From the NCBI GenBank assembly GCA_028693695.1, contig JAQUUV010000001.1, forward strand, positions 959-64,958: 64,000 nt of DNA, given 5' to 3'. Of the stretch, positions 17,714 to 49,365 are shown one piece after another (position 1 is the first letter of the stretch; the number at the start of each line of letters is the position of its first letter). Position numbers and translations under genes: made by a program. Under the pieces are notes generated by a model that was given only the letters and a program-made list of their open reading frames with translations, searched no databases and was not told the DNA's origin. The stretch comes from Syntrophomonas sp. (GTDB lineage: Bacteria; Bacillota; Syntrophomonadia; Syntrophomonadales; Syntrophomonadaceae).

Positions 17714-17869
17714 AAAAATCATCTCCTCGTACAATGTCGGCATTGAAAATGCTGCACCATACATTATACTTGGCACAAAAACTTATCCTAGAAACTTTGC
17801 AAAACATCAGATGGAAGGAGGATTCCCTGAAATTCCTCGGATAATATTTTCCCTCGGATAATTCAGATT

Positions 17870-22932: not shown

Positions 22933-23232
22933 AAATATGCTTTTTAACATGACCAGAAGATTCCAGTGCTCTTAAAATAAAACAAATCTGCCTAAATCGA
23001 CATGTGATGTGCTAAAATTTTAATTAGGAGTTTTCTTATCTGTCGATAGACAGACACCTTCTTGATTACCGGGAAATGACTAAGCAGTAGGTGTAGGAGA
23101 TACAATCGAATACATATACCAGGACTTCGAGTTTTGGATCCTAAAGGCTATGCCCACGGAGATAAAACCAATTAGTTTGCTGAGAAATCGGCAAGTTTTC
23201 CGTATTTGAGAAGAAGGCCATTATAACCGTTT

Positions 23233-23280
23233 ATCAAAAAGATAGGCATGTGTTTTTTGGCGCATGCCTATCTTTTTGAT
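23233..23280. terminator. 18-bp perfect palindrome (bidirectional terminator-like)
   Basis: ATCAAAAAGATAGGCATG-N12-CATGCCTATCTTTTTGAT, with T-runs on both strands. Confidence 0.5.
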
Positions 23281-23426
23281 AAAAATCATATTTTATCGAA
23301 TGGAGATCAAACAGACTTCAAGTCTCAGGGTTTTTACCCCGCAGCCAAGTGGTGGGCAACTGGCCGGAGGATACTAAATAAATATCCCCAAAGGATAAAT
23401 AAATTAAATTTATAAGGAGAATCATT

Positions 23427-24263
23427 ATGAAAGGACTTTTGAATTGGGAAGCAATCCATAAACTGACGCATGATAATTTGTCTAAAATGAATGAATCTGA
23501 TCAAAAAGAGATGTGGGGCCGTTCGGCTGAGATGTATGACTTCATGGCCAAGCTGGAAAAGGAGCATACCCAAAACCAAGTAAGTAAAATGATCTTGGAT
23601 TTCAATGATACCGTGGTGGATATTGGTTGCGGACCTGGAAGGCTGACAGTCCCCGTCGCCAAAAGAGTAAAAAGTGTAACCGCTGTGGATATTTCCACGA
23701 AAATGCTGGACAAGTGCATCACCAATGCTAAGGCAGAAGGATTAAACAATGTTGTTCCTCTAGAACTCAATTGGATGGAGAAAGGTGCGGAAAAGACAGT
23801 TGGGATGCATGACATTGCCATTGCTTCACGTTCGGTGGGTTTTTCCGATATCGTCAAACTAAACAACATTGCCAGAAAATATGTATTTGTTTTAAGCTGG
23901 GCAAATGCCCCCAGTCTGCGGGAAATTCAGTTGAGCTTCTTGGAGGGAATTACGGAAGATAAAGTACCTTCTGGAGCAAGCAATAGAATGTTTGGCTATA
24001 ACGTTATTTTTAATCTTCTTTATGATATGGGGATTGAGCCCAACGTAGTAATTGTCGAAGATGGGTTCAGTCGGGAATATGAAACAAAAGAACAAGCTTA
24101 TGAAGACTTGCACTCTATAGGAGAAATCCCTAAGGATAAGGAAATGCAGTTTCGAAGCAACATCGATAAGTATTTAACAGAAAAGCCTGCAGGAGGTTTC
24201 CTTCTACTAAGAAAAACGAAAACCTTTGTCATGTGGTGGAAGCCTCAAGTACTGGATATTTAA
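23427..24263 (+). CDS. Class I SAM-dependent methyltransferase (cassette 1)
   Basis: Motif I VVDIGCGPGRLTVPVA. Paralog of 28236..29114 (shared LLNW.., ELNW/HLNW, GYNVIFNLLYDMG/GFNVPFNILYDLG). AAGGAGA RBS. Confidence 0.85.
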   Translation: MKGLLNWEAIHKLTHDNLSKMNESDQKEMWGRSAEMYDFMAKLEKEHTQNQVSKMILDFNDTVVDIGCGPGRLTVPVAKRVKSVTAVDISTKMLDKCITNAKAEGLNNVVPLELNWMEKGAEKTVGMHDIAIASRSVGFSDIVKLNNIARKYVFVLSWANAPSLREIQLSFLEGITEDKVPSGASNRMFGYNVIFNLLYDMGIEPNVVIVEDGFSREYETKEQAYEDLHSIGEIPKDKEMQFRSNIDKYLTEKPAGGFLLLRKTKTFVMWWKPQVLDI

Positions 24264-24387
24264 GTGCTGTGCGTGAGGAATACTTATGTAGTTCTATGTG
24301 TCTTTTAGGACAACAAATTGTTAAGCGTCATTTTTTAGAAATACCCATATTATCTAGGGAATAACCGGTGAAGATAGGATTGATTAA

Positions 24388-25488
24388 ATGCAGCAGGAGA
24401 TAAAACCCGAGGACCCGCTCAAATTAACCTCTAATAAATATGGTGTGACTGATAATACTGTTAATAAGAGCGAGAGCCGAGACCGATACATATTGCTTAG
24501 CCTCGGCATCCTGCTTATCGTAACCGTGCTCATTTCGCTGGTTATAGGGCGATATGGAATCTCACTCCATCAGATGCTGGATATCATTCAATCGTGGATT
24601 ACCGGTAAGGAAAACCCCAACAACCACGAGGCGGAGGTCGTTATTTCAATCATTCGTGTTCCCCGTATTCTGCTCGCTATCCTGGTTGGGGCTGCGCTGT
24701 CGGCTTCGGGAGCCGCCTACCAGGGGCTGTTTAAAAACCCGATGGTATCGCCCGATTTATTGGGAGTATCTGCTGGTGCGGGGGTAGGTGCCTCCATAGC
24801 TCTTTTATTGTCCTTTAGTTATTTAGGGGTTCAACTAATGGCGTTTGTGTTCGGGTTGGGAGCGGTTTTTTTGGTACTTGGACTTAGCTCCGCCATCGGC
24901 CGGGGAAACGGCTCCCTGCTTATCATGGTATTGGCTGGAACAGTTATATCAGCGCTGTTCGCCTCTTTCACCTCCCTGGCAAAATACCTGGCCGATGCAG
25001 ATGCCAAACTTCCAGAGCTTACCTTTTGGCTGATGGGAAGCTTCGCAAAGTCAGGCAGCTATAAGAATGTTCTGGTTCTTCTCATCATTATGCTGATTAC
25101 GGGCTTGCCGCTCTTCCTCCTTCGCTGGAAGATCAATGTGCTTTCCTTTGGCGAGGAGGAAGCACAGGCAATGGGTGTGAATACCAAAAGGCTCACCATT
25201 ATTATTATACTTTGCTCTACCATGTTGACAGCCTCGTCAGTCGCGCTGTGCGGGATGATCAGCTGGGTGGGATTAATCATGCCGCATATCGCCAGGCTTC
25301 TGGTCGGCCCTAACTACAAGTCGCTGCTGCCCACCGCAATGCTGGGTGGTTCAGTATTTATGCTGGCGGTGGACAACATTGCACGGTCGCTCATTGCGGG
25401 AGAGATTCCCATTGGGGTGCTTACCTCGATGATAGGTGCTCCCATTTTTATCTATCTATTGTTTAAAGGAAGGAGAAGTTGGGTATGA
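24388..25488 (+). CDS. FecCD/BtuC-family ABC permease (cassette 1)
   Basis: 366 aa, multi-pass. GAALSASGAAYQGLFKNPMVSPDLLGVSAGAG and GAPIFIYLL are family motifs. Confidence 0.9.
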   Translation: MQQEIKPEDPLKLTSNKYGVTDNTVNKSESRDRYILLSLGILLIVTVLISLVIGRYGISLHQMLDIIQSWITGKENPNNHEAEVVISIIRVPRILLAILVGAALSASGAAYQGLFKNPMVSPDLLGVSAGAGVGASIALLLSFSYLGVQLMAFVFGLGAVFLVLGLSSAIGRGNGSLLIMVLAGTVISALFASFTSLAKYLADADAKLPELTFWLMGSFAKSGSYKNVLVLLIIMLITGLPLFLLRWKINVLSFGEEEAQAMGVNTKRLTIIIILCSTMLTASSVALCGMISWVGLIMPHIARLLVGPNYKSLLPTAMLGGSVFMLAVDNIARSLIAGEIPIGVLTSMIGAPIFIYLLFKGRRSWV

Positions 25489-26282
25489 AGCTGGAAATTC
25501 GCAATGTCGTTTGCGGCTATGGCTTCAAGACGGTGGTGAACGATTTCAGCGCTACGGTCAGCTCGGGGGAGATTCTTTGCCTGCTCGGGCCCAACGGCGT
25601 AGGAAAAACCACGCTCTTTAAAAGCGTTCTGGGCTTTTTAAAGCTGCAGGGCGGAGCGGTACTCGTTGACGGGCTGGATGTGAGAAATCTATCGAAAAAA
25701 GCATTTGCACAAGTGCTGGGATATGTGCCGCAAGCACATGTACCGCCCTTCCCCTTTACGGTGAGGGATGTGGTCGTCATGGGCAGAAGCTCATACCTCG
25801 GGGCGTTTGGCACCCCCGGGAAGCATGATATTGAGGTGGCCGAAAGCTGCTTGGAAAGCCTGGGCGTGTCGTTTTTAGCGAACCGCGTCTATACCGAGCT
25901 TAGCGGAGGGGAGCGGCAGATGGTGCTGATTGCCCGCGCTCTTACGCAGGAGCCCGCCTTTATCATGATGGACGAGCCCACCTCTAATCTGGATTTCGGC
26001 AACCAGGTTCGGGTGCTGAGGCATATCAGCAAGCTCGCCCAAGATGGGTTGGGCATAATTATGACAACCCATTTTCCTGACCATGCTTTTCAGTGCCACT
26101 GCAAGGTGGCCTTAATGCAAAGAAACGATGTTTTCATCTTCGGCTCCGCAGAAGAGGTCGTCACCGAAAAAAACCTTTACGATGCCTATGGCATCGAGGT
26201 GAAGGTGAAAGATACCCATTTTGAATACTTTACCATTCGTTCCTGCATGCCCATTATTGAAGAGACCGATTCTTCCCCGTAG
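25485..26282 (+). CDS. ABC ATP-binding protein (cassette 1)
   Basis: ATGA overlap with the permease stop. [27 protein letters not shown]. Confidence 0.9.
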
Positions 26283-26337
26283 TTTCCACCATCCGGCGTT
26301 TACATATAAACTCAAACAAAAACAAGGAGGAGTTATC

Positions 26338-27438
26338 ATGAGAAAATTATTTAAGACGCTAAGAGTCTCAAAAATCATTGTGGCCATATTTATGATTTCG
26401 TGTTTGCTGCTGACGGGCTGTTCAGGTACAAAATCGGGTAACACAGCACCTGCAACCAGGGTTGTTCAAGATGGCAGCGGCAAGGATGTGACCATCCCGG
26501 CTACGGTTTCCCGTGTTGCACCGGGTATTGGTGCATTTGCTCAGATGACCGAGATGCTCGGAGGCAAAGGCACAATTGTTGCTTCCGTTACTACTCTTTC
26601 CGATGAGTTTAAGAAAGTCTTCCCCGATTTTCTTCAGAGCAACCCCAATGGCAGAAATTCAGCCAATATTGAGGATATCATTGCTGCCAAAGCGCAGGTG
26701 GTGTATGGCCCAACCTACACCGATGAGCAGATAGCGCAGCTCAAGGCAGCGGGCATTGCGGTTGTACCAATAAAAGCCTTCTCCACAGTGGAGGAGATGA
26801 AGAAGGATGTTCTGATTATAGCCAGCATCCTCGGTGGAGACGCACCGGCAAAGGCCGCCAAGTTCAACGCATATTATGATGGCAATATAAAATATGTTCA
26901 GGATAAAACAAGCAGTCTGAAGGATGCGGATAAGGTTAAAATCCTATCCCTCAACTACAGTGCCGGCAACTACTCAACCATTAACTCCACCGACATTGGC
27001 TCCGTTTATATGGTTGCAGCCGGTGGTATAAACGCGGCTGCCAGTTATACAGGTCTGGCGGGCAGCACCACAGGAACAACCATGAATGTAAACACTGAGC
27101 AGATTGTAAAATGGGCACCGGATGTAATCATTACAAGCAGTAAAGCCAGCCAGGCCCAGATACTTAAAGAAGCCACCCTTGCAACGGTACCGGCTATTAA
27201 GAATAAAAAAGTATATGTTGTTCCTACCGGAACTTATCTGTGGTCGGTTCGCAGCGGAGAAGGCGCCTTGCAGCCACTGTGGCTGGCAAAGACGATGTAT
27301 CCCGATATCTTTAGCGATCTGGATATGTCCGCCAAGGTAAAAGATTTTTATGAAACCTTCTATGGCTATAATATTCAGCCGGATGAGATCAAAGCAATTC
27401 TAAATGGCGATCTCGCCATGACCACGTTAACAAGATAG
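26338..27438 (+). CDS. Periplasmic-binding-protein (siderophore/heme/B12 class) lipoprotein (cassette 1)
   Basis: Start at the ATG behind GGAGGAG. Lipobox LLTGC. The C-terminal YLWSVRSGEGALQPLWLAKTMYPDIF is typical of Peripla_BP_2 proteins. Confidence 0.85.
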   Translation: MRKLFKTLRVSKIIVAIFMISCLLLTGCSGTKSGNTAPATRVVQDGSGKDVTIPATVSRVAPGIGAFAQMTEMLGGKGTIVASVTTLSDEFKKVFPDFLQSNPNGRNSANIEDIIAAKAQVVYGPTYTDEQIAQLKAAGIAVVPIKAFSTVEEMKKDVLIIASILGGDAPAKAAKFNAYYDGNIKYVQDKTSSLKDADKVKILSLNYSAGNYSTINSTDIGSVYMVAAGGINAAASYTGLAGSTTGTTMNVNTEQIVKWAPDVIITSSKASQAQILKEATLATVPAIKNKKVYVVPTGTYLWSVRSGEGALQPLWLAKTMYPDIFSDLDMSAKVKDFYETFYGYNIQPDEIKAILNGDLAMTTLTR

Positions 27439-29114: not shown

Positions 29115-29153
29115 TATATTACTCCGTCCTTTCTTACATATCTGCACCGCTTT

Positions 29154-29933
29154 TTATAGCTTGGCAATGCAAACATTTCGTCCAACTTTTTCAACATGTT
29201 CAATTTTAACATCGATCTGATAAACCGATGAAAGCATTTCCTCTGTAATGGCGTCTTTAGACAAACCTACTGTTAAGTGCCCACTTCTATCAAGAACGCC
29301 CACGGTATCTTCCAACATGATGGCATGATCGGGGTTATGCGTTGTCATAATAATGGCGAACCCCCGTTTTGACAGGTCTTTGATCATGCGGATCGTCTTG
29401 AGCTGGTTCCCAAAATCCAACGCAGAGGTTGGTTCGTCCATTATAATTATCTTGGGCTCCTGCACTATGGCGCGAGCAATCATCGCTTGCTGGCGCTCGC
29501 CGCCGCTGATATCTGTATACGGACGGTCTGCCAGATGTGCGATTCCCATCGACTCAATTGCGGCATTTGTCTTGACAAAGTCCTCATTGCTGGGCATTCG
29601 ATAGATGCTAATATAGGGTGCCCGCCCCATAACGACAAAATCGCGTACAGAATATCCATAGGTGGCATTGTGTGTCTGTGGCACATAGCCGATGTTTTTA
29701 GCAATCGTTTTTCTATCCAATTCTTTAATCAGCTTGCCATCGATAAAAATCTCACCCGTATTGAGCTGCAGGAGGTTTGTGATACAATTTAAGAGCGTGG
29801 ACTTCCCTGCGCCGTTTGGCCCTATTATGGAAAATATCTGCCCTTCTTCTATTGTAAAGTTAACATTTCCAAACACTTCATGGCCATCCAGGTAAGAAAA
29901 CCCAGCGTTTTTCACTTTCATTAAAACGTTCAT
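29154..29933 (-). CDS. ABC ATP-binding protein (cassette 2)
   Basis: GPNGAGKST, ISGGERQ, IIMDEPTSALD. 4-bp overlap with the permease gene. Confidence 0.9.
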   Translation of the reverse strand: MNVLMKVKNAGFSYLDGHEVFGNVNFTIEEGQIFSIIGPNGAGKSTLLNCITNLLQLNTGEIFIDGKLIKELDRKTIAKNIGYVPQTHNATYGYSVRDFVVMGRAPYISIYRMPSNEDFVKTNAAIESMGIAHLADRPYTDISGGERQQAMIARAIVQEPKIIIMDEPTSALDFGNQLKTIRMIKDLSKRGFAIIMTTHNPDHAIMLEDTVGVLDRSGHLTVGLSKDAITEEMLSSVYQIDVKIEHVEKVGRNVCIAKL

Positions 29934-31012
29934 CGCAATTTCATCCTTTGCTTAAACAACAGCCATGCAAACAACGGCGCACCAATAAATCCCGTGATTA
30001 CGCTAAGAGGTACCTCCGCGGCAGTTACCGTGCGCGCCAGCGTATCCACTACCAACATAAACGATGCGCCCACAAATACCGAAATGGGCATGACCTTGGA
30101 ATTATCCGGTCCAACAATCATTCTGCACATATGCGGAATGATTAGTCCCACCCATCCAACCGTACCACTTATGCATACTGCGCAGCCCGTCAATACGGTG
30201 GAACAAATGATGGCGCAGCCGCGAATCGCCTTAATGTTTGTCCCCAGTAAGCTAGCCTCGTTTTCCCCTAGTGATATAATATTGATACGCCAACGGATGA
30301 CAATAAGTATTATCATTGCCACAAACATTGCTGGAAAGACCGCAATGACATCTTCTGCTTTGACGGACGAGATACTTCCCAGTTGCCAATAAGTAATAGC
30401 CGCCAACTGTGTTTCCGGGTCGGCAATGTATTTTAACAAGCCGATGGTAGATATCATGAATCCCGATACAATGACGCCTGAAAGCACAAGCATCAACGAT
30501 GAACTATTGCGCATCAGTTTGGGAATGGCAGTTGCGATGAATACTGCAACCAAACCAAAAGCCAATGCGAAGAGCTGAATTCCTATATGTCCCAGACCCA
30601 TTAGTATAGCCAGCGCTGCACCTACACACGAACCCGAGGATACACCGAGCAGGTCTGGAGAAACCAACGGGTTTTTAAATATGCCTTGATAGGTTGCGCC
30701 AGAAAGCGAGAGTGCCGCACCGACAAGCAAAGCTGCTATCATACGCGGAAGCCTTACCTTTAATACCACGTTTTCCATGATGTCTGTCCATGTTCGTTCT
30801 ATTGGAAAAATGGGAGAAAGCAGGATTCTTATTATATCTTCCAGACTTAAACTGTATCTGCCTAAGCAGAGGGAAACTAAGCTTAGTACAAGAGTTAAGA
30901 TAATCATCAGAACGAGCACCCGACATCGCCGCTTGTCATTTGCCATTCTTACCAATTCCACAGATTTATTCGAATTCATTCCAACTTCACTGCCCCTTAT
31001 TACATCCCACAT
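29930..31012 (-). CDS. FecCD/BtuC-family ABC permease (cassette 2)
   Basis: GAALSLSGATYQGIFKNPLVSPDLLGVSSGS, GAPLFAWLL. The start is uncertain (31012 or 30979). Confidence 0.9.
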   Translation of the reverse strand: MWDVIRGSEVGMNSNKSVELVRMANDKRRCRVLVLMIILTLVLSLVSLCLGRYSLSLEDIIRILLSPIFPIERTWTDIMENVVLKVRLPRMIAALLVGAALSLSGATYQGIFKNPLVSPDLLGVSSGSCVGAALAILMGLGHIGIQLFALAFGLVAVFIATAIPKLMRNSSSLMLVLSGVIVSGFMISTIGLLKYIADPETQLAAITYWQLGSISSVKAEDVIAVFPAMFVAMIILIVIRWRINIISLGENEASLLGTNIKAIRGCAIICSTVLTGCAVCISGTVGWVGLIIPHMCRMIVGPDNSKVMPISVFVGASFMLVVDTLARTVTAAEVPLSVITGFIGAPLFAWLLFKQRMKLR

Positions 31013-31083: not shown

Positions 31084-32157
31084 TTACGGAGCTGTCGGGA
31101 AGAGAATATCCTGAATTTCTTTTTCTGTGGGCGTATATTTATAATACGTATTATAGAAATTAGTTACTTCCGCTTTCATGTCGATATCGGCAAAAAGCTT
31201 AGGCTGAATAACGGTGGCTGCCCACAGCACCTGTAAGGCTTCATCAGCGCTTCTTACGCACCATGGAAACACGCCCCTGGGATTAACATATACTTTGTCA
31301 TTCTTGATAGCTGAGAGTTTGGCCAATCTTGCGTCTGCTAAATAGGCTTTCTTATGAGCATAATCCCTGCAAATGATAATATCAGGATTCCATTGAAGCA
31401 ACTGCTCAGGAGATACGTCTTTGAACGTTCCTTCAATGCCATTTTCAGCAGCAATATTTACACCGCCTGCCATTTCAATCCATGATTTAACAATGGTGCC
31501 ATTGCCTTCTGTATTAAGGATACCGTTTGCAGCATAAAACACGGTAGGGCGGTCTGCCTTCGCGATGGCAGTTGTTTTTGCTGTAACATTATCTATGTTT
31601 TTCTGATAGAACGCACTCAGTTGTGCAGCAATCTTCGTTTCCTTTTCACCCATAATCTCACCAAGAAGATTGACGCATTTAATAAGAGTTTCAGGAGAAG
31701 TACCCATCATCATTACTGCGGGGATACCGGCGTTTTCAACTGTGCTTTTTTGTTCTTTGGTGCTGACGATGACAACATCCGGCTTAAGGCTCATTAGCAT
31801 CTCGACATTAATCTCGCTTGTGGCTGAAATGAACATGGGCAGTTTTGTGATCTCGGGGTAAAATTTAATGTACCATTTATTGTTGACGTTGGATGTGTTG
31901 ACAGCTATGTTTTTTCCAGGGCTGCCAAGCAACAAGAACATTTCTTCAACCGCGGGATAAGTACTGCAGATGCGATTTACTACCTTGGGGATTTTCACTT
32001 CAGCGCCTGTGAAGTCAACGACTGTGCGGGTTTCCGCAACGGTCTTGGTGGATTTATTAGAAGTAGTGGTTGTGGTTTTCTGGCAGCCTGTAGCAAATAC
32101 AGCCATCATCATTATTGCCAACGCAATCGCCAATACCCGTGTTAATTTCTTTTTCAT
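31084..32157 (-). CDS. Periplasmic-binding-protein lipoprotein (cassette 2)
   Basis: Lipobox FATGC. PDVVIVST, PWCVRSADEALQVLWAATVIQPKLF. Confidence 0.85.
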   Translation of the reverse strand: MKKKLTRVLAIALAIMMMAVFATGCQKTTTTTSNKSTKTVAETRTVVDFTGAEVKIPKVVNRICSTYPAVEEMFLLLGSPGKNIAVNTSNVNNKWYIKFYPEITKLPMFISATSEINVEMLMSLKPDVVIVSTKEQKSTVENAGIPAVMMMGTSPETLIKCVNLLGEIMGEKETKIAAQLSAFYQKNIDNVTAKTTAIAKADRPTVFYAANGILNTEGNGTIVKSWIEMAGGVNIAAENGIEGTFKDVSPEQLLQWNPDIIICRDYAHKKAYLADARLAKLSAIKNDKVYVNPRGVFPWCVRSADEALQVLWAATVIQPKLFADIDMKAEVTNFYNTYYKYTPTEKEIQDILFPTAP

Positions 32158-32220
32158 TTTCTTTCCTCCTCGTATAATAATTTTAGAGCCATTAAGTAAT
32201 ACACCTAAAACCCGGCTATT

Positions 32221-32256
32221 ACTAACCTATAACCTAACCTATAACCTAACCTATAG
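32221..32256. repeat. Short tandem repeat (about 2.5 units of TAACCTATAACC)
   Basis: ACTAACCTATAACCTAACCTATAACCTAACCTATAGC, located in the long AT-rich leader of cassette 2. Confidence 0.7.
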
Positions 32257-32504
32257 CACTCTGCTTTTATTGTCCATCTACTTTAAACGGTATGAAATAT
32301 GGGTTATAATTTTATATTTCCCACTACAAAAACCATACTTTTATAAATTTCTTACAATCATTCAGTCGATGCAATTGCCTAATAATGATTTTTTGTTTTC
32401 GGGAAAGAACGGCTTAAACATGTTTCATGTTTACACAAAAAAATATGTAATAAGGCTATCGCATAATAGTCGCGCTTATTACATAAAAATACACACATTT
32501 ATTC

Positions 32505-32620
32505 ATTCTACATTGCACTCCTTTCCAAATTCGGGAGGCATACCAGTTTCCTAGCATACCCATAGGTTACTTTTCATGGCATTAATGCTTTAGAAAAAGC
32601 AACTCGAATTGCATTTATGT
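32505..32620 (-). promoter_or_regulatory. Moco (molybdenum/tungsten cofactor)-type riboswitch candidate
   Basis: The minus strand reads ..TTCGAGTTGC..CTAGGAAACTGGTATGCCTCCCGAATTTGGAAAGGAGTGCAATG. The GGAAAC, GCCUCCC and UGGAAAGGAG blocks keep the same order and spacing as the other two copies and as the E. coli moaA leader I recall (GCCUCCCGUAUCUGGAAAGGUG). The 5' block is less canonical. Confidence 0.55.
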
Positions 32621-32974
32621 TTGTTTTCATTTTTGTTAATGTTATTACCGAACTTTTTTATTGTCAATCCATAATGTGGTAAATACTATTTTATTGTCAA
32701 AACAAGGTTTGTATTACATAAATACTAAGAGATACTATTAGTACAGCAGAACAATTTATTTAACAGACTACCCCGGTATAAAGGCAATCCGTACCTAAAA
32801 GATCGAGGCGTCACCCTTTTCGATAGAAAAAGCCAGGCCCTTCAAACCCCTATGCCCCCCTATCATTATATTTTCTGAAAGGACATCAATTTAAGTCGTC
32901 AATAAATTCAAACATTGCAGGATTCCACATTTTTATGTCGAAATTGAACGCTGTAAACATATATACAACTAAAT

Positions 32975-33070
32975 ATACTCCGAGCCAGTTAACCTAAAGT
33001 GAAACCCAAGGTTTTCAGGACGATAGGGTTTGTCGGGAAACTGACATGCCTCCCAATGTGGAAAGGAGAA
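32975..33070 (+). promoter_or_regulatory. Moco (molybdenum/tungsten cofactor)-type riboswitch candidate
   Basis: ACTCCGAGCCAG..GTCGGGAAACTGACATGCCTCCCAATGTGGAAAGGAGAAG. All three conserved blocks are present (CCGAGCC, GGGAAAC, GCCUCCC-N4-UGGAAAGGAG), and CUCC/GGAG can close P1. A weak hairpin plus T-rich tail lies at 33092..33121. Confidence 0.7.
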
Positions 33071-33266
33071 GCTGAATTCGGCCAGATAACGGGCGGACTG
33101 CTTTTGCGGTTCGCCTTTCTTGTTAATTTGGTTGTGGTTGACTATTAAAAATAGTTTTTTTGCTCGGCATTTCCTTCTGCCGGGCTTTTGCTATTTCTGG
33201 AATCGACTACCTGCCAAGGTTTGCCATAGTAAGCCTTAAGAATTAAATAGACAAGGTGGGATAAAT

Positions 33267-34343
33267 TTGCATGATTCAAATAGTTCTGAAATAGATTTAT
33301 CAATCAAAACAAAAAAAGACGTTGCCAGAAAATTTAATAAGAAATGGATACTTCTTATCCTTAGCCTATTACTAATTGCTACTTTTGCCATTTCTTTCAC
33401 TCTTGGCAGGTATGCAATTCCATTATCGCAGCTTTTTGAAATTCTTTTTTCAAAACTATTTGGGTTTCAGGCGACTTGGGACGCTACGATGGATACCGTA
33501 CTGTTTAAAGTCAGACTGCCAAGGCTTTTAGCAGCCATAATGATTGGGGCGGTCCTGTCTTTATCAGGAGCTACCTATCAGGGATTGTTTAAAAACCCAA
33601 TGGTTTCGGCCGATATTCTGGGAGCCTCGGCTGGAGCTGGGTTTGGAGCTGCTATAGCTATGCTGCTTTCTTTCGATGCCGTTGGAATTCAACTTATGTC
33701 CTTTGCATTCGGTCTGGGTGCGGTTGCGATTACCACCGTAGTCAGCACGATAGTGGGACGCGGCAACGATTCAACCCTATTGCTGGTTCTTACCGGAATG
33801 GTGGTTACTTCACTTTTCTCCTCAGCTATTGCATTAATTAAATATGTTGCAGACCCAGATCTCAAGCTGCGAGAAATAACTTTCTGGCTTATGGGGGGGC
33901 TTTCCGCCATCAGAATGAGCGATTTAAAAATTGTTCTTATTCCAATGATTTTAGGGGCGGTTCCATTGCTGCTTTTGAGATGGAAACTAAATGTTCTTTC
34001 CTTTGGAGATGAAGAGGCCCAAGCAATGGGAATTGACACGTCGCGGTTGAGATTAATCACCATCATTTGTTCTACCCTACTGACCGCCAGTACCGTTTCT
34101 ATTGGTGGGATTATCGGCTGGGTGGGATTGGTCATTCCGCATTTGGCACGAATGCTGGTTGGACCAAATTACAGTATTCTTTTGCCGACATCCTTATTAG
34201 TTGGAGGCTTATACTTGCTGATTGTTGATAATGTTGCAAGATGTATGTTCGCTATGGAAATTCCCCTTGGAATATTAACATCTGTCATTGGAGCACCCTT
34301 CTTCATTTACTTACTTATGCACGGAAAGAGAGGATGGGTATGA
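33267..34343 (+). CDS. FecCD/BtuC-family ABC permease (cassette 3)
   Basis: TTG start behind an AAGGTGGG RBS. GAVLSLSGATYQGLFKNPMVSADILGASAGAG, GAPFFIYLL. Confidence 0.9.
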   Translation: MHDSNSSEIDLSIKTKKDVARKFNKKWILLILSLLLIATFAISFTLGRYAIPLSQLFEILFSKLFGFQATWDATMDTVLFKVRLPRLLAAIMIGAVLSLSGATYQGLFKNPMVSADILGASAGAGFGAAIAMLLSFDAVGIQLMSFAFGLGAVAITTVVSTIVGRGNDSTLLLVLTGMVVTSLFSSAIALIKYVADPDLKLREITFWLMGGLSAIRMSDLKIVLIPMILGAVPLLLLRWKLNVLSFGDEEAQAMGIDTSRLRLITIICSTLLTASTVSIGGIIGWVGLVIPHLARMLVGPNYSILLPTSLLVGGLYLLIVDNVARCMFAMEIPLGILTSVIGAPFFIYLLMHGKRGWV

Positions 34344-35122
34344 AACTAGAAATCAATAATGCTGTTTGTGGATATGGTTCCAAGAAGGTAATAGAAGACA
34401 TATCATTTGATGTAAAGTCAGGAGAAATCCTTTGCTTGCTGGGACCAAACGGAGTGGGCAAGACAACCCTATTTAAAACCATTTTGGGCTTTTTAAGGTT
34501 ACAGAGCGGGGAAATTCTAATTGAAGGAGATAACGTAAAAAACTGGTCTAGAAATCGGTTGGCAAAAGCAATCGGCTATGTACCTCAAGCACATACGCCG
34601 CCCTTCCCTTTTAATGTCCTTGATGTAGTAGTCATGGGAAGGACTGCTCATATAGGTCCTTTTTCATCCCCATCCAAAAAGGATGTTCTAATTGCTGAAG
34701 AAGCATTAGAAACATTAAATATCTCTTTTCTAAAAGACAGAATTTACACCGAAATAAGCGGAGGAGAACGGCAGATGGTGCTGATTGCCCGTGCCCTTAC
34801 TCAGCAACCCGACATTTTAGTAATGGATGAACCGACGGCAAATCTGGATTTTGGGAATCAAATAAAAGTGCTTGAGCAAATAAACCGCTTATCCAAAAAC
34901 GGTTTGGCTGTTTTTATGACTACGCATTTCCCGAATCAGGCGTATCTTTGCTCAACAAAGGTTATCATCCTCCAAAAAAACAATGAGTTTAAAATGGGTC
35001 AAGTTGAGGAGGTGATTACCGAAGAAACCCTTAAAGCAACCTATGGAATCGATGTTAGAATTACCAGTGTAAAAAATCAAAACGGTGACAAAATCAGTGC
35101 TTGCATCCCATTACTCAATTAG
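34340..35122 (+). CDS. ABC ATP-binding protein (cassette 3)
   Basis: ATGA overlap with the permease stop. [27 protein letters not shown]. Confidence 0.9.
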   Translation: MKLEINNAVCGYGSKKVIEDISFDVKSGEILCLLGPNGVGKTTLFKTILGFLRLQSGEILIEGDNVKNWSRNRLAKAIGYVPQAHTPPFPFNVLDVVVMGRTAHIGPFSSPSKKDVLIAEEALETLNISFLKDRIYTEISGGERQMVLIARALTQQPDILVMDEPTANLDFGNQIKVLEQINRLSKNGLAVFMTTHFPNQAYLCSTKVIILQKNNEFKMGQVEEVITEETLKATYGIDVRITSVKNQNGDKISACIPLLN

Positions 35123-35185
35123 CTTGGCCGAGATTCTTTATTCCCGAAAATCATTGATAAATCAAGACAGGAAAGGATGATTAAG

Positions 35186-36367: not shown

Positions 36368-37216
36368 ATGGGTATTAAAATCGTTGATGTTCAGGAAGGT
36401 AGCGCTATGGCAGCTAGACTGGCTCTTGAAAAGAAATTGATTCCGTTTATAGGATCAGGATTTACTGCCTATTGCAAGTCAAGGCAGGGATATTGTCCGA
36501 CTGTGGAACAATTAAAAGAGATCAGCCGCAATTTATTAATTAAATTTAATGATTACTTACTTGAGGATATTAATGAAATAAAAACTCATCCAATACGGAC
36601 GTTTTTTGATATTGCTCCACGGTCTGATGTTAAAACATTTTTTCTTGATTACTTTACAGAAATAGAGTTGGAACAATATAAGATGGATTTTTTGAATGTA
36701 ATTGATTGGCCGCGAGTTTACACCTTTAATATTGATAATGCCATTGAAACCCATGGTAATTTTCAAGCGTTACTACCTTATACAAATTATAAGGATTATG
36801 TTATATCTAGGAGGCCTGTTTATAAATTATATGGTGACGCATACAGTGAAGCAGTATTTGATGATTGTGAAGGTGTATCCTTCAGAAATGGTTATGTCAA
36901 AAACCTTACTGCTAAAAAGAATGCGGATTTTGTTGAAAGTATAGGCAACGATTTTGCCAGCAATAATATTATTTATGTCGGTACGAGAATAACACAGAAG
37001 CATATCAGAGACATTTATCAGAAGAGTAAACCAGTGCAAAGTTTGCAACGCATTATTGTACTCGACACAGTACCCACGCCTGAAGAAGAAGAAGGCTTAT
37101 TAGTTGCGGGTGTTAATCTGATTATTCTTGTTAAAGAATATAAGCCGTTTTACACGACGTTTGTCGACTGCTATCGAAAAATGGCTGCCAATCGTAATTC
37201 ATCAGAATCGGCATAA
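36368..37216 (+). CDS. SIR2-like (SIR2_2-type) domain protein, paralog 1
   Basis: The SIR2_2 blocks occur in order: LIPFIGSGFT (GAG-type NAD loop), VYTFNIDNAIE (the TTNYD..E block), VYKLYGDA (the position of the HG block, with Tyr in place of His) and NNIIYVGTRITQKHI. Confidence 0.6.
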   Translation: MGIKIVDVQEGSAMAARLALEKKLIPFIGSGFTAYCKSRQGYCPTVEQLKEISRNLLIKFNDYLLEDINEIKTHPIRTFFDIAPRSDVKTFFLDYFTEIELEQYKMDFLNVIDWPRVYTFNIDNAIETHGNFQALLPYTNYKDYVISRRPVYKLYGDAYSEAVFDDCEGVSFRNGYVKNLTAKKNADFVESIGNDFASNNIIYVGTRITQKHIRDIYQKSKPVQSLQRIIVLDTVPTPEEEEGLLVAGVNLIILVKEYKPFYTTFVDCYRKMAANRNSSESA

Positions 37217-37305
37217 CGAGGGGAGTGTCGCCGCTATGACTGCCGAACGGGGCCATATTTGGACGAACCAAATTTTTGTTCGTATTCTTTTGTTAGGAGG
37301 TAACG

Positions 37306-38145
37306 ATGGGTATTCATATATTAGATATTCCGGAAGGATGCAGCATGGCCGCAGGGCTGGCTTTTGAAAAGAAATTGATCCCGTTTTTTGGTGCGGGATT
37401 TACCGCGAATTGCAGGTCGAAAAACGGGCGCTGCCCGACGTCCCAAGCATTAAACGAAATCATCTGCAATCTGATCATAAAATATAATGACTGCACCATG
37501 GAGGATCTGGAAGGTATATTCCCTTTGTCGCGAAAGCTTTTTGACACAGTTCCCCCTTCGGAGATCCGCTCATTTTATCTTGATTATCTGACGGAAATTG
37601 AGCTGGAACAGTATAAATTCGATTTTTTAAACGTTGTTGACTGGCCCCGCGCCTACACATCCAATGTTGACAACGCCATTGAAAGCAATGGTAGTTTTCA
37701 AGCACTGTTACCATACTATAATTATAAAAACTATGTTATTACCCGAAAACCAGTATATAAACTGTATGGTGATGCATACGCAGAAGCAATGTTTGATGAT
37801 TGCGAAGGAATTGCCTTCAGAAACTCCTATCTTCCAAACCTTACAGCCAAGAAGAACTGGGATTTTGTAGAAAGCCTAATAAGCGATTATTCAAACTATA
37901 ATTTTATTTTTGTCGGAAGCAGCCCAAAAGGCAAAAAGCATATGGCATACATCTTTGAGTGTAGCAAACCCAGCCAGGATTTACAGCGTTTTCTGGTGTG
38001 CAATGCAGTACCCACTCAGGAGGAAGAAGAAAATTTATTAGCCATAGGTGTTGAGCAAATCATTCTTGTTGAAGATTTCGAGCTGTTTTACACAATATTT
38101 GTAGACTGCTATCGAAAAATAGCAGCCAATCGTGCTTCGTTGTAA
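37306..38145 (+). CDS. SIR2-like (SIR2_2-type) domain protein, paralog 2
   Basis: LIPFFGAGFT, AYTSNVDNAIE, VYKLYGDA, YNFIFVGSSPKGKKH. Clear paralog of 36368..37216. Source of the fragment at 27779..28136. Confidence 0.6.
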   Translation: MGIHILDIPEGCSMAAGLAFEKKLIPFFGAGFTANCRSKNGRCPTSQALNEIICNLIIKYNDCTMEDLEGIFPLSRKLFDTVPPSEIRSFYLDYLTEIELEQYKFDFLNVVDWPRAYTSNVDNAIESNGSFQALLPYYNYKNYVITRKPVYKLYGDAYAEAMFDDCEGIAFRNSYLPNLTAKKNWDFVESLISDYSNYNFIFVGSSPKGKKHMAYIFECSKPSQDLQRFLVCNAVPTQEEEENLLAIGVEQIILVEDFELFYTIFVDCYRKIAANRASL

Positions 38146-38295
38146 CCGGCATAATCAGGGTATTCTAAACAATGTATTATGTACCCAACAGCAGACCCTA
38201 TATACTCGCTATAGATTAATTGTATTGTTTGCATATTCTTCACAGTAATGTGAGAAATGCGTTGCGGAAAAAGATCGACAAAAGAAGGGGGAAAT

Positions 38296-39042
38296 ATGAA
38301 AAAAATTGCAATTTACGGCAAGGGCGGAATTGGGAAATCCACAATAACCGCGAATTTGTCGGCGGCTTTGAGCAAGAAAGGCTACAAGGTTATGCAGATC
38401 GGCTGCGATCCCAAGTCCGATTCCACCAAAGCACTGATGCACGGAGTTAAAATCCCCACCGTTTTGGACCAAATCAAGAAAAACGGCAAAAAAGTAACAC
38501 TCAAGGAAATTGTGTTTGAAGGGTATAACGGTGTTCTGTGTGCGGAGGCCGGCGGACCTACGCCCGGGATCGGCTGTGCCGGGCGGGGCATCATTACGGC
38601 TTTTGAAAAGCTGGAGGAGCTGGGGGCTTATGAGATACTCAAACCCGACCTCGTCTTTTACGATGTTTTGGGGGATGTAGTGTGCGGAGGCTTTGCCATG
38701 CCAATCCGCAATGGATACGCCGACCAGGTGTTTATTGTCACTTCTGGAGAGATGATGGCCATGTATGCCGCTTCCAATATCGTAGCCGCCATCGAGGGCT
38801 TCGGAAAACGAGGCTATGCAAAATACTGCGGACTTATCTTAAATTCGCGCGACATAGAGAACGAATATGAGCTGGTCTCAAAGCTAGCGAGAGAAACCAA
38901 AGGCCAGATTATCGGGGTTATACCCCGTAACATCAGTGTTCAAAATGCGGAACGCCTGAATCAAACCGTGGTGGAGGCTTTTCCTGATTCCGAAATGGCC
39001 ATCTGCTATCGAGATTTGGCTGATAAAGTGATGGAGGTGTAA
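38296..39042 (+). CDS. NifH/BchL/CfbC-family ATPase (nitrogenase iron protein-like)
   Basis: MKKIAIYGKGGIGKST (P-loop), CDPKSDST (switch I), and both [4Fe-4S] Cys motifs, GIGCAGRG and DVLGDVVCGGFAMP. Only 248 aa. Start at the ATG behind a GGGGGA RBS. Confidence 0.9.
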   Translation: MKKIAIYGKGGIGKSTITANLSAALSKKGYKVMQIGCDPKSDSTKALMHGVKIPTVLDQIKKNGKKVTLKEIVFEGYNGVLCAEAGGPTPGIGCAGRGIITAFEKLEELGAYEILKPDLVFYDVLGDVVCGGFAMPIRNGYADQVFIVTSGEMMAMYAASNIVAAIEGFGKRGYAKYCGLILNSRDIENEYELVSKLARETKGQIIGVIPRNISVQNAERLNQTVVEAFPDSEMAICYRDLADKVMEV

Positions 39043-39046
39043 GGGC

Positions 39047-40285
39047 ATGTATAATGACTCGGTTTTTGAAAACACACTTCAATATCATAATCCGTCACCG
39101 GCGCGAGTTCAGTTAGAAGTAAGAACAGGCCTCCCCGAAACCCATCGGCTGCATGTGTCGCCGTCTGCCTGCGGACGACGATTTGCGATAAGTGACCTTC
39201 GCCATGGAGTCAAGGAAAATCGTTCTCATTTGTTCATCAGCGAAGAAGATATTTTTTCTAGTTGCTATGAGGATTTGATACCCGATGCGGTTGAGGAAAT
39301 GCTTAATATTATGGAAAAGCAGCCGAGAGCCATCATTGTATATGTGACCTGTATCGATAATTTTCTGGGAACAGACCATAACGCGCTAGTCTCCTTGCTG
39401 GCTCAACGGTTCCCCGATATAAAATTCACCGTTTGCGCTATTAACCCCATTGCCCGGGATAAGGGGGCCCCGCCCAACGTAAATCTGCAGAATGTATACT
39501 ACGGGCTTTTAGACAGAACCGAAAATACAGAAGATGCTGTAAATCTTGTCGGGAATCACCTGCCGCTTGTAAAAGGATGCGAAATTTTCGAGATTCTGCA
39601 CGGGCTGGGAATGAAAGCGAAGGAAATTTGCAGCTGCAATACCTTTGACGAGTTTTTGTCCATGGCGAATAGCCGCTTAAATGTTGTCGTGGGACACGTG
39701 GCTCAGATGGCTGCCGAGCAGATGGAACAAAAGCTGGGTATTCCGTTTTTATCTGCACCGCGCTCCTATAAAATTGACGAAATAATACAGTTGTATAATG
39801 ATATGGCCTCTGCTTTGGGGCGCGGCAAACCCGATTTGAAAGGGTACATCGCCCGGTCAAGAGAGAAGATTGAAAAGACGTGCAAGTATCTTAACAATAT
39901 GCCGATCGTGGTCGATTCCTCCGGGAGACCTTTTTCTTTGGCAAAAGCGCTTTTGAATTACGGCTTCAATGTTAAAATGGTCTTTGGCGGGGTGGTTTTG
40001 ATCAGCGATATGCCAGACTATGAGTGGATAAAGAATAACCGGCCGGATATCACGATTGCCGACGCACGCCGATTTGATGTGATAAACGCCAATAATCAAT
40101 TGGGTGAATGCCTTTGTATCGGATTTTCAGGCGCCTATACGCTGGGAGCTAAACATATGGTGGATATGGATGGGGGAAATGCCTATGGATTTTACGCCAT
40201 TGAGGTCTTGATGGACAAGATGAACGAGGCCCGCGACTCAACAGTAGATTTCAATGCGCTTCTAAATGAAAGCGAGGTTTGGTAA
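39047..40285 (+). CDS. Nitrogenase component-1-like subunit (NifD/NifE-like, short form)
   Basis: 412 aa, 4 nt after the NifH-like stop, GGAGGTG RBS. Oxidored_nitro-like pattern (VSPSACGRR.., VYVTCIDNFLGTD). About 100 aa shorter than true NifD. Confidence 0.7.
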   Translation: MYNDSVFENTLQYHNPSPARVQLEVRTGLPETHRLHVSPSACGRRFAISDLRHGVKENRSHLFISEEDIFSSCYEDLIPDAVEEMLNIMEKQPRAIIVYVTCIDNFLGTDHNALVSLLAQRFPDIKFTVCAINPIARDKGAPPNVNLQNVYYGLLDRTENTEDAVNLVGNHLPLVKGCEIFEILHGLGMKAKEICSCNTFDEFLSMANSRLNVVVGHVAQMAAEQMEQKLGIPFLSAPRSYKIDEIIQLYNDMASALGRGKPDLKGYIARSREKIEKTCKYLNNMPIVVDSSGRPFSLAKALLNYGFNVKMVFGGVVLISDMPDYEWIKNNRPDITIADARRFDVINANNQLGECLCIGFSGAYTLGAKHMVDMDGGNAYGFYAIEVLMDKMNEARDSTVDFNALLNESEVW

Positions 40286-40288
40286 AAC

Positions 40289-41458
40289 ATGAGTCAGCTG
40301 TGTGTATATTTGCCCCCCTTTTCGAGCGACTATTCCGGCGTGTGCACCTGCCTTTTTGATCTGAACGGCATGGTGGTCATTCATGATGCATCCTGTTGCT
40401 GTGCCAACTACGTAAGTTATGACGAACCACGCTGGTTTGGCAACAAAAGGCCGATTTATTGTTCGGCGCTGCGGGAGATTGACGCTATTTTAGGAGACGA
40501 CGAGAAATTTATTCGCAAAGTTATTTCGGCATGTGACAGCATGAAGCCGGAGTTTATCGCGGTGCTGGGCAGCCCTGTGCCAACGATCATCGGCTCCGAT
40601 ATGAACGGAATCGCCCAGGAGATTGAGGGAAAAACGGGGGTGCCAACTTTTGGATTTAGCACTACCGGGTTTCGTTATTATAACCGTGGAGTGGCCGAGG
40701 CCATGGTTAAGTTTGCCAAATATTACGGAGGCAAAAGCAGTCAGCAAAATCCTGGCGGTGTCAATATCCTGGGGCTCACAGTGCTAGATTTTTCCGACAA
40801 CTCCAATGCCGCCGATATCCGAAATCTTTTTGAGGGAAACGGCTTTGAAGTGATTTGCAGCTTTATGATGGGCTGCAACCTAATGGATATACAAAGATCC
40901 ACGCAGGCTGAGGTGAATATTGTAGTGTCCCAGTCGGGAATGGCTTTGGCAGCTTTTATGGAGAAAGAATGGGGAATCCCCTATGTTGCGGCAACCCCTT
41001 TGGGCAATGAGGGCAGCGAAGCCGTTGTGCGCACTGTTCGGCAGGTCTGCGAGGACCACAAGAGCCGGGTTTTGCACGGTGAGGGTCTGCATGACGGCGA
41101 GGTTCTGATCCTGGGCGAGCAGATGATTGCTAACTCCTTGCGCAACTCCCTAGCGCAGAGCTACGGAATAAAGGGGGTTACGGTAGGGTGCCTATTCGGC
41201 ATGGATAAGGCATTGGCGCAGGATTTCGATATTGACATCAGGGACGAACGACATATTCGGGATTTGATTACAAGCGGAAAGTATAGCAAGCTGGTTGCCG
41301 ACCCTCTCATGAAAGTTATGCTTAAAGATAGGGATATTTCTTTCTTCCCCCTGCCCCATGTGGCGGTATCGAGTAAGCTATACTGGCACCGCTACAAGAC
41401 CTTTATCGGAGATAAGATGGAAGCTTTTCTCGCGCAAATTGCTGGAATCCCGATGTAA
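40289..41458 (+). CDS. Nitrogenase component-1-like subunit (NifK/NifN-like, short form)
   Basis: 389 aa, 3 nt after the preceding stop. VIHDASCCCANY.., AVLGSPVPTIIGSDMNG are typical of the component-1 family. Confidence 0.7.
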   Translation: MSQLCVYLPPFSSDYSGVCTCLFDLNGMVVIHDASCCCANYVSYDEPRWFGNKRPIYCSALREIDAILGDDEKFIRKVISACDSMKPEFIAVLGSPVPTIIGSDMNGIAQEIEGKTGVPTFGFSTTGFRYYNRGVAEAMVKFAKYYGGKSSQQNPGGVNILGLTVLDFSDNSNAADIRNLFEGNGFEVICSFMMGCNLMDIQRSTQAEVNIVVSQSGMALAAFMEKEWGIPYVAATPLGNEGSEAVVRTVRQVCEDHKSRVLHGEGLHDGEVLILGEQMIANSLRNSLAQSYGIKGVTVGCLFGMDKALAQDFDIDIRDERHIRDLITSGKYSKLVADPLMKVMLKDRDISFFPLPHVAVSSKLYWHRYKTFIGDKMEAFLAQIAGIPM

Positions 41459-48780: not shown

Positions 48781-48808
48781 AAAAAAACCTCCTATCTGTA
48801 CAGGAGGG
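48781..48808 (-). terminator. Terminator hairpin, candidate expression platform of the upstream riboswitch
   Basis: The minus strand reads CCCTCCTGTACAGATAGGAGGTTTTTTT. Confidence 0.6.
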
Positions 48809-48962
48809 TAGACTTATTTGCCATAGTAAATCCATGACAATATACTGCATTCAAATGCATGCTCCCCCCTGACCAGAAACACCTCAAAGCGCAAAACGCA
48901 TACTAGCACCCGACTTCCCTTGTAAAGAAAGTCTGGGCAACACAAATTGCCTTTACTGACCA

Positions 48963-49080
48963 GTAACTCCTTTCCAAGCAAGGGAGGCAAATCCGTTTCC
49001 CGATTTACCGTGCCGGTAAAGAAAACCGAGTCGGCTAAATCCCCATGGCCGAAGCTTTAGGCGAAGTAGCTTTGGAGCTA
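48963..49080 (-). promoter_or_regulatory. Moco (molybdenum/tungsten cofactor)-type riboswitch candidate
   Basis: The minus strand reads AGCTCCAAAGC..TTAGCCGACTCGG..AATCGGGAAACGGATTTGCCTCCCTTGCTTGGAAAGGAGTTAC. It lies upstream of a Mo/W-enzyme operon, which is the expected genomic context. Confidence 0.7.
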
Positions 49081-49365
49081 AACGTTTGAATATTATTTAG
49101 TTGTTTTCGAAATATTTTTATTATTCTTACAGGTATTATTCTTCATCCGGATGCAAACGAATAATAATATACACATCTATACATATATTAACATAACACA
49201 ACATAACATTACTAGATTACTTTTTATTTTAATTTAATAATGACTCGTCATATAAAAACTATACTCGACTTTACTTAACAGCATTAAAATGCTACAGAAT
49301 GAAATCGCTAGTATCCGCAGGATTGAGTGATCAATATTGTTCTAATTTATCTATAAAATCACTAA

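Follow-up and report, generated by a model that had tools for sequence, protein, structure and literature searches.

What do two riboswitches of the molybdenum cofactor (Moco) family control when they stand back to back between two importer operons, and what do those importers carry? The question is raised by 64,000 nucleotides of DNA out of a metagenome-assembled genome of Syntrophomonas sp. (contig JAQUUV010000001.1, positions 959 to 64,958), referred to as the window throughout. Two Moco-like elements lie on opposite strands of the window, and each faces one of two paralogous ATP-binding cassette (ABC) importer operons, cassette 2 on the minus strand and cassette 3 on the plus strand. This divergent layout had been predicted from the letters alone, and it is borne out by the Pfam domains and the paralogy of the cassettes. 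We scanned the whole window with the Rfam Moco model RF01055 (135 model positions, gathering score 36) and obtained four matches, each spanning the full model (Table 1). The two back-to-back elements, which the original prediction had called Moco-like, scored 76.6 and 55.8 bits and truly belong to the Moco RNA family. The other two matches lie ahead of a third importer operon (cassette 1) and ahead of a formate dehydrogenase (fdh) operon, the latter serving as a comparison copy.

The best explanation, to which we assign a probability of about 0.7, is that both elements are aptamers of molybdenum- or tungsten-cofactor (Mo/W-cofactor) riboswitches lacking the P3 helix, each of which would act as an OFF switch by attenuating transcription of the importer operon that it faces. 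The two elements are a fresh and clear example of a published arrangement and not a new type of element.

The aptamers and the absence of P3

The covariance model accepted both elements, and their conserved blocks fit the consensus fold. In the model alignments they possess helices P1, P4 and P5, the two-part P2 and the junction CCUCCC...GGAAAGGAG, with few non-canonical pairs. A GNRA tetraloop on P4 and its receptor in P2 are among the features of Moco RNAs (Regulski et al. 2008, PMC2408646). All four copies in the window have a GAAA tetraloop on P4 and a CCUAAAG/CAUGG-type receptor in P2, which reads CUAAAG...CAUGA in the minus copy and CCUAAAG...CAAGG in the plus copy. P1, P2 with the receptor, the GAAA loop on P4, P5 and the junction are likewise found in the E. 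coli moaA Moco RNA. Free-energy folding recovered the P2 and P4 hairpins of the minus copy and P1 and P4 of the plus copy. The block GGAAAC-N6-GCCTCCC-N4/5-TGGAAAGGAG, which had been noticed as common to both elements and the fdh copy, occurs exactly three times in the window (32518-32551 on the minus strand, 33036-33068 on the plus strand and 48967-49000 on the minus strand), with 0.00 occurrences expected from 100 shuffles. A permissive Rfam rescan of 32100..33300 returned the two known matches; neither the intergenic region nor the leaders gave a hit to any further RNA family.

P3 is deleted in both back-to-back copies and in the cassette-1 copy, where P2 and P4 are just 3-4 nt apart, and it is retained in the fdh copy. 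The two elements had been seen to be shorter than the fdh copy, and it had been suspected that this might reflect the split between Moco RNAs with and without P3; the model alignments agree. P3-less and P3-containing forms within one genome have been described for clostridia (Regulski et al. 2008), and the window follows this pattern.

The cassette-1 aptamer has a variant core, UUUUCC...GAGAAGAAG instead of CCUCCC...GGAAAGGAG. As read from the model alignment its changes are compensatory, with CC/GG replaced by UC/GA in P5 and CUCC/GGAG replaced by CUUC/GAAG in P1, and the P5 change is also present in an Oscillospiraceae copy (locus L003, see below). In MAFFT alignments of 10, 7, 6 and 3 aptamers, a one-base difference in loop length was displaced to the 3' end and P2b was out of position, which made the alignments unsuitable for counting pairs or for building a covariance model of our own, and the Rfam alignments were used instead. 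Pairwise aptamer identities were inflated through gap placement and were kept out of phylogeny.

Table 1. Positions of the aptamers, their flanking signals and the operons they face in the window (Tuco, the name used for P3-less elements in E. limosum)
Feature	Position	Strand	Details
Moco/Tuco aptamer without P3, facing cassette 2	32621..32502	-	RF01055, 76.6 bits, E 9e-17, model 1-135
Moco/Tuco aptamer without P3, facing cassette 3	32966..33084	+	RF01055, 55.8 bits, E 1e-10, model 1-135
Third P3-less Moco-family aptamer, ahead of cassette 1	23113..23232	+	RF01055, 55.2 bits
P3-containing Moco riboswitch ahead of the fdh operon (comparison copy)	49089..48951	-	RF01055, 70.3 bits
Terminator-like hairpin after the minus aptamer	32485..32437	-	11-bp perfect arms, 20-nt loop, then U7; inverted repeat I8, 100% complementary
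Two serial terminator-like hairpins after the plus aptamer	33091-33116 then TTCTTGTT; 33162-33185 then TTTTGCTATT (within 33091..33195)	+	11 and 8 pairs
Long hairpin directly 3' of the cassette-1 aptamer	23231..23282	+	Core GATAGGCATG/CATGCCTATC, then TTTTTGAT
Tandem promoter-like sites	32639..32700	-	TTGACA-18-CATTAT and TTGACA-17-TAACAT, 10/12 matches each; duplicated 16-nt block (direct repeat D2)
Long AT-rich leader, terminator to binding-protein start	32158..32436	-	No Rfam family and no consensus promoter on this strand
Cassette 2 operon	32157 down to 28236	-	Pfam: Peripla_BP_2, FecCD, ABC_tran, class I methyltransferase
Cassette 2, binding protein	31084-32157	-	
Cassette 2, FecCD permease	29930-31012	-	
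Cassette 2, ATPase	29154-29933	-	
Cassette 2, S-adenosylmethionine (SAM) methyltransferase	28236-29147	-	
Cassette 3	33267-36250	+	FecCD permease (TTG start), ATPase, Peripla_BP_2 binding protein (Pfam)
Cassette 1	23427..27438	+	Methyltransferase, FecCD permease, ATPase, binding protein (Pfam, paralogy)
Two SIR2-like genes, then nitrogenase-like genes	36368..41458	+	NifH-like 38257-39042, two NifD/K(E/N)-like 39047-41458 (Pfam, NCBIfam)

Proposed expression platforms and the conserved link to the importers

Each of the three cassettes, which are 31-57% identical among themselves, has a P3-less aptamer of its own ahead of it, and in all three cases a hairpin with a U-tract directly follows the aptamer. 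The minus-strand hairpin starts 16 nt past the aptamer match and is present in both the minimum free energy (MFE) and the centroid folds; its arms (32485-32475 and 32454-32444) are followed by U7 at 32443-32437, which is A7 on the plus strand. Both hairpins of the plus copy are in its MFE fold, and the first begins 7 nt past the aptamer. The cassette-1 hairpin, with a complementary upstream A-tract, forms 25 bp in the MFE fold; it was passed over by the terminator scan owing to the limit on loop length and was found from the sequence and the fold. A terminator-like site also follows the fdh aptamer (48807..48788).

The linkage of riboswitch and importer, which the original prediction had proposed to compare in related genomes, is conserved. 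A genome scan with the binding-protein family of cassette 2 gave 13 loci. All four clostridial loci among them (L001, Syntrophomonadaceae; L003, Oscillospiraceae; L004, Sporobacter sp.; L005, S. termitidis) have an RF01055 match of 61-79 bits directly upstream of the orthologous binding protein. L014 also has the aptamer upstream, and its binding proteins share 72% and 83% identity with the cassette 2 and cassette 3 proteins; counting it, five clostridial loci show the link. RF01055 matches are further found upstream of related importer operons in L032 and in Desulfosporosinus (L102), the latter operon including binding-protein genes. The actinobacterial and archaeal loci of the 13-locus scan possess the importer, often with the methyltransferase, and no riboswitch. 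The Sporobacter locus (L004/L016) has the same layout as the window, with a back-to-back aptamer pair between a cassette-2-like operon (binding protein, permease, ATPase, NifD-like, NifK-like and NifH-like) and a cassette-3-like operon (NifD-like, NifK-like, permease, ATPase and binding protein). The Sporobacter pair has P3 and, in addition, a 21-23-nt hairpin inserted into the P5 loop, and transposase genes lie on both sides of the island.

In L001, L003, L004 and L005 a terminator starts 6-30 nt past each plus-strand aptamer and 108 nt past the minus-strand copy of L004, and the leaders after these terminators are roughly 80-230 nt long. Because a hairpin with a U-tract follows the three importer copies of the window and also the copies in these four relatives, the usual design of these importer copies would be attenuation of transcription ahead of a long leader.

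Immediately upstream of the minus aptamer are the tandem promoter-like sites. A consensus scan, from which a weak promoter could escape, found no sigma-70-like promoter between either aptamer and its first gene, that is, no independent importer promoter downstream of the elements of the kind that the original prediction had considered. Three copies of the motif T(T/G)GACAATAAAA lie on the minus strand (32267-32278, 32656-32667 and 32689-32700). Two of the copies are the -35 regions of the tandem promoter-like sites. The third copy of TGGACAATAAAA (32267-32278) falls within the leader of cassette 2, some 110 nt upstream of where the binding protein starts, and might bind a regulator or act as a second, weak promoter. 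Beside it is a 12-nt tandem repeat, CTAACCTATAAC, in 2.8-3 copies (32222-32257). A 39-aa open reading frame (ORF) at 32379-32498 and other short ORFs showed no sign of coding, and a long-range inverted repeat (32823-32838 and 33179-33194) is probably due to chance.

The original prediction had rightly described a long AT-rich spacer with the 12-nt repeat on the minus strand (344 nt, from the aptamer end at 32502 to the binding-protein ATG at 32157) and an ATG soon after the minus aptamer that is followed at once by a stop (ATG-TAG at 32511-32506, 4 nt past GGAG). It had suggested that the riboswitch was re-used after its original gene was lost. The minus copy would then be a leftover translational switch, either co-opted or idle, whose gene survives as the ATG-TAG, and the importer would be expressed from elsewhere in the 344-nt spacer. 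The position of the GGAG in the 3' strand of P1, so close to the ATG-TAG, speaks for this history, and so does the leader of about 280 nt after the hairpin, with its tandem repeat and a TGGACAATAAAA box like the upstream -35 regions. But a terminator-like platform is found here and in every related copy examined, with leaders of comparable length, no consensus promoter lies between aptamer and gene, and the minus copy has the highest score of the four, which argues against decay. An ATG a few nucleotides from GGAG is not improbable in AT-rich sequence, and chance explains the ATG-TAG equally well as history. Since the platform and the leaders are shared with the relatives, loss and re-use are not needed to explain the locus, and we consider them very improbable.

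If the elements are OFF switches, each aptamer would have its own promoter inside the 344-nt intergenic region that the two share. Abundant pterin cofactor would bind the aptamer, the downstream hairpin with its U-tract would form, and transcription would end ahead of the operon; with little cofactor, it would continue along the long leader into the importer operon. Cofactor binding and ligand-dependent control by the window copies are proposed by analogy with E. coli and E. limosum. The ABC importers encoded in the operons are of type II (FecCD/BtuC-like) and related to MolBC-A; they would most likely import a W or Mo species for cofactor synthesis, and cassette 3 would additionally be coupled to a nitrogenase-like reductase.

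The arrangement has direct published precedent, including expression data that fit an OFF switch. E. limosum has five P3-less RF01055 elements ("Tuco"), two of them ahead of "Fe ABC-type" operons, fetABC1 and fetABC2; fetABC1 has a terminator platform, and the operon is up-regulated under tungsten limitation (2024, PMC11725836). As in the window, a P3-less element precedes an iron-complex-type ABC importer and there are two such operons per genome, whereas the window pair is back to back and accompanied by a third cassette; fetABC and the cassettes were compared by description only. In D. hafniense, the supplement of Regulski et al. lists a Moco RNA followed by genes for MoeA, NifH, two NifDK-like proteins, MoeA, FecCD, FepC, TroA_e and a radical SAM protein, and another followed by Crp, FepD, FepC, COG2014 and TroA_e. 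These importer operons are tabulated in the supplement, and the main text is silent on them. The D. hafniense operons (Dha-2-2, Dha-1-3 and Dha-1-1) have the same gene families as cassette 3 together with nitrogenase-like genes, and L032 reproduces the gene order of Dha-2-2. By contrast, the window operons have no MoeA; the importer genes lead, two SIR2-like genes follow and the nitrogenase-like genes close the series. As riboswitches, then, the window copies are ordinary members of a described class, and the pairing with "iron-type" importers was tabulated in 2008 and reported for E. limosum in 2024.

Both ribosome-binding-site-type and terminator-type platforms are known for Moco RNAs (Regulski et al. 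2008, PMC2408646). In the E. coli element P3 is present and the ribosome-binding site is hidden in P1, whereas the importer copies of the window have no P3, terminator-like hairpins and long leaders. At least 15 Moco RNAs were counted in Syntrophomonas, more than in any other genus on record (Regulski et al. 2008, PMC2408646). In S. wolfei, three stand in series, and the resemblance to the window lies in several P3-less Moco RNAs close together, terminators after the first two and a long gap before the first ORF of the operon (Regulski et al. 2008, PMC2408646). However, the tandems of S. wolfei and Geobacter metallireducens lie on one transcript, while the window pair is on opposite strands, serves two operons and offers no cooperative 'digital' control.

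P3, the ligand and the cargo of the importers

P3-less RNAs correlate with tungsten-cofactor metabolism, and two structural types have been described (Regulski et al. 2008, PMC2408646). If this correlation holds here, the three importer copies may respond to the tungsten form of the cofactor rather than the molybdenum form. Outside the window, P3 is present in all seven aptamers whose alignments were inspected, and L032 appears, by length, to have it as well. The plus copy aligns with the aptamers of L014 (1479-1611) and L102 (6753-6885) through P1, P2, P4 and P5, with a clean 13-nt gap in place of their P3. Judged from this alignment, it would be a Desulfosporosinus-type aptamer minus the 13-nt P3, and the binding proteins downstream of the three aptamers are up to 83% identical. 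It may be that the absence of P3 is irrelevant to the ligand and that all three P3-less copies respond to the molybdenum cofactor, or to both forms, just as the fdh copy does. Orthologous importer operons stand under P3-containing aptamers at seven other loci, the plus copy differs from its L014 and L102 counterparts mainly by a clean deletion, and the connection of P3 with the metal is correlative only. On the other hand, three of three importer copies lack P3 and the fdh copy has it, a non-random distribution that fits the published segregation, and E. limosum, a tungsten user, has five P3-less copies out of five (PMC11725836). We regard a ligand-neutral loss of P3 as a serious possibility, somewhat short of an even chance. 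Nearly identical aptamers, some having P3 and some lacking it, thus precede orthologous operons and offer material on which the Mo/W rule for P3 can be tested.

The importers combine a FecCD-family permease and an ABC ATPase with a MolA-homologous binding protein of cluster A, which is the composition of a MolBC-A-type importer. Among structures of characterised function, the molybdate/tungstate binder MolA (3psa/3psh, HI_1472) comes closest to the binding proteins; it matched the cassette 3 binding protein over its full length (residues 43-339, E 1e-28) and the profile of the binding-protein family at E 1e-38. PDB 4ovk and MolA (3psa) are both homologues of the cassette 2 binding protein. A look-up of the exact sequence of that protein came back empty, although a cluster representative with 100% identity exists. 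MolBC-A of H. influenzae (HI1470/71/72) is likewise composed of a FecCD-type permease, an ABC ATPase and a Peripla_BP_2 binding protein (PMC4031551). It differs in that identity is only about 25-30%, in that the motifs NTEG and WCVRSADE of the window family are not found in MolA, and in that no methyltransferase or nitrogenase-like partner of mol is reported in the literature compared (PMC4031551). Since these motifs are absent from MolA, the substrate may differ from free molybdate or tungstate.

Are the importers, as annotated, iron transporters? In that case they would carry iron or iron chelates, and the riboswitch would coordinate iron supply with the iron-rich W and Mo enzymes. Their Pfam families are Peripla_BP_2 and FecCD, the source annotations read 'iron complex transport', and many PDB relatives bind siderophore, heme or B12. 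The authors of the E. limosum study also read the Tuco-controlled operons as Fe transporters and found higher cellular iron on lactate (PMC11725836). However, an OFF switch would cut iron import just when the cofactor is abundant, the induction of fetABC1 at tungsten limitation is what is expected of tungsten acquisition (PMC11725836), the nearest of the characterised structures is MolA, and MoeA or moa/nar genes lie within or beside the operons of some relatives. MoeA genes are embedded in the operons of L032 and of Acetobacterium (L101). By analogy, induction under scarcity of cofactor or tungsten would fit a metal-supply system and not an iron importer. An iron cargo therefore appears unlikely to us. 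If "iron" importers under these switches really serve W/Mo supply, annotations in many anaerobes need correction. Separately, in Agrilactobacillus yilanensis (L020) a homologous importer without riboswitch directly follows narH-J-I, moaE, moaD, moaA and a gene for a major facilitator superfamily transporter, an independent context that points to a molybdenum role.

The genes downstream of cassette 3, on the same strand, raise a further reading of the cargo. The NifH-like gene scored 338-340 bits against NCBIfam cut-offs of 394-402. The D/K-like proteins had NifE as their best match, at 40-71 bits against a cut-off of 505, and their nearest PDB entry is also NifE (E 5e-11). All fall under the curated cut-offs for nitrogenase, CfbCD and DPOR and thus belong to an uncharacterised nitrogenase-like clade. 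Nitrogenase-like genes are known to occur beside ABC transporters (Dos Santos et al.). A 2026 review of nitrogenase-like systems describes most Group IV clades as uncharacterised and mentions neither riboswitches nor molybdopterin. We scanned metagenomes with the NifK-like protein family and obtained 80 loci. Importer genes of the same family are present in 65 of them, nearly always directly downstream in the order binding protein, FecCD permease and ATPase, and nearly all the others are contigs that end just past nifK. The 80 loci were screened for Moco riboswitches with a regular-expression core descriptor that recovered 10 of 10 Rfam-confirmed copies, and a subset was checked with Rfam; the descriptor was tuned to known copies, and divergent ones may escape it. 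Only L032 had a Moco riboswitch, and Rfam found none in six other 21-kb loci or in the Acetobacterium and Eubacterium loci. Several riboswitch-less loci carry a Crp-family regulator instead.

Some partners of the module vary between lineages. The Moco riboswitch and MoeA accompany it in some only (L032, D. hafniense). A gene for a Crp/Fnr-family regulator adjoins importer/nitrogenase-like operons in L014, L102 and L103, and also in the D. hafniense entries in the supplement of Regulski et al.; such a regulator may provide an alternative or additional control of the module, some carriers of which have no Moco riboswitch. In Acetobacterium tundrae (L101) the operon begins with MoeA, and a DUF4213/DUF364 protein (COG2014, 7255-8019) lies between the binding protein and the NifH-like gene; COG2014 is also present in a D. 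hafniense operon.

With these partners, the importers and the NifH/D/K-like proteins could form a salvage route that takes up and processes an organic or complexed form of the metal and not a free oxyanion. Candidates are metallophore- or sulfide-bound Mo/W species, or the pterin cofactor or its breakdown product, and in relatives the NifH/D/K-like genes are joined by MoeA, radical SAM, DUF364 and methyltransferase genes. Control of BtuFCD by the B12 riboswitch is an analogue of such a route. Bulky chelates are the usual cargo of type II importers, the methyltransferase, encoded in cassettes 1 and 2, is conserved in Firmicutes, Actinobacteria and Archaea, and the binding-site motifs are unlike those of MolA. 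Besides the 65 metagenome loci, operons of NifH/D/K-like and importer genes are found in Sporobacter, L032, L101, L102, L103 and the window, and clusters of this kind have been suggested to couple metal transport to cofactor assembly (Dos Santos et al.). However, nitrogenase-like genes are missing from cassettes 1 and 2, and most nitrogenase-like/importer modules have neither a Moco riboswitch nor MoeA, so that the substrate of the module may be unrelated to Mo/W. A salvage route is, like an iron cargo, improbable in our judgement. MolA, the gene contexts and the induction data favour Mo/W, while the motifs, the methyltransferase and the nitrogenase-like genes oppose a simple oxyanion; for these reasons we consider it likely that the importers carry W/Mo species in one chemical form or another.

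A broader proposal would join these threads. Moco/Tuco switches in the window, Sporobacter, Desulfitobacterium-like genomes and Desulfosporosinus could mark an unrecognised pathway of W/Mo cofactor acquisition or salvage, built on a type II importer and NifH/D/K-like proteins with MoeA, radical SAM, DUF364 or methyltransferase partners in some, and the clean loss of P3 in the three importer copies, set against orthologues that have it, could record a recent switch from sensing the Mo form to sensing the W form. This is speculative, and we think it rather unlikely as a whole. The locus nevertheless connects a large nitrogenase-like clade that is common among Clostridia of guts and digesters with cofactor-responsive control in certain lineages, and the riboswitch link gives the nitrogenase-like field a concrete hypothesis.

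Several observations count against attenuation by a Mo/W cofactor as the explanation of the two elements. Thermodynamic folds gave no convincing antiterminator pairing, and the terminator forms with or without P1. Because the free-energy folds show aptamer and terminator coexisting and no antiterminator was identified, the coupling of the two is something that we infer. The minus-copy hairpin is AT-rich and is followed by about 280 nt of unexplained leader, in which the tandem repeat and the third TGGACAATAAAA box could be a second control point. The seven orthologous operons under P3-containing aptamers count here too, as does the fact that tungsten sensing by P3-less copies derives from the 2008 correlation and not from measured specificity. 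As for the cargo, the motifs NTEG and WCVRSADE are invariant in the binding-protein family and not shared with MolA, simple oxyanion uptake would hardly account for the conserved methyltransferase and the nitrogenase-like reductase, and most nitrogenase-like/importer modules have no Moco riboswitch.

Other genes and features of the window

The two SIR2-like genes (36368-37216 and 37306-38145) form a tandem that separates the binding-protein gene of cassette 3 from the NifH-like gene. They are 62% identical and resemble the N-terminal domain of Avs5. A 118-aa fragment after cassette 1 (27687-28043) is 88% identical to the second of them, and no SIR2-like genes were seen in the related loci examined.

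The second catalytic subunit of formate dehydrogenase (41765-44461, minus strand) is split by an in-frame TGA (43400-43402) within HCARL*HS, which is the usual position of selenocysteine. The upstream 779-aa paralogue (46301-48640) is uninterrupted. A fluoride riboswitch (RF01734, 9095-9164, minus strand) was found directly upstream of the enolase gene (7731-9032), with a score of 34.7 bits against a threshold of 34.

There are three consecutive tyrosine-recombinase genes on the minus strand (14515-17776) and another integrase gene on the plus strand (50600-51562), and together they bracket a region of about 30 kb that contains all four Moco riboswitches. Proteins 78-93% identical to those of the window are found in Desulfosporosinus, Desulfitobacteriaceae and a 'Parabacteroides' metagenome-assembled genome (MAG). 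The bracketing integrases and these identities suggest a transferred island, or a binning error in the 'Parabacteroides' MAG.

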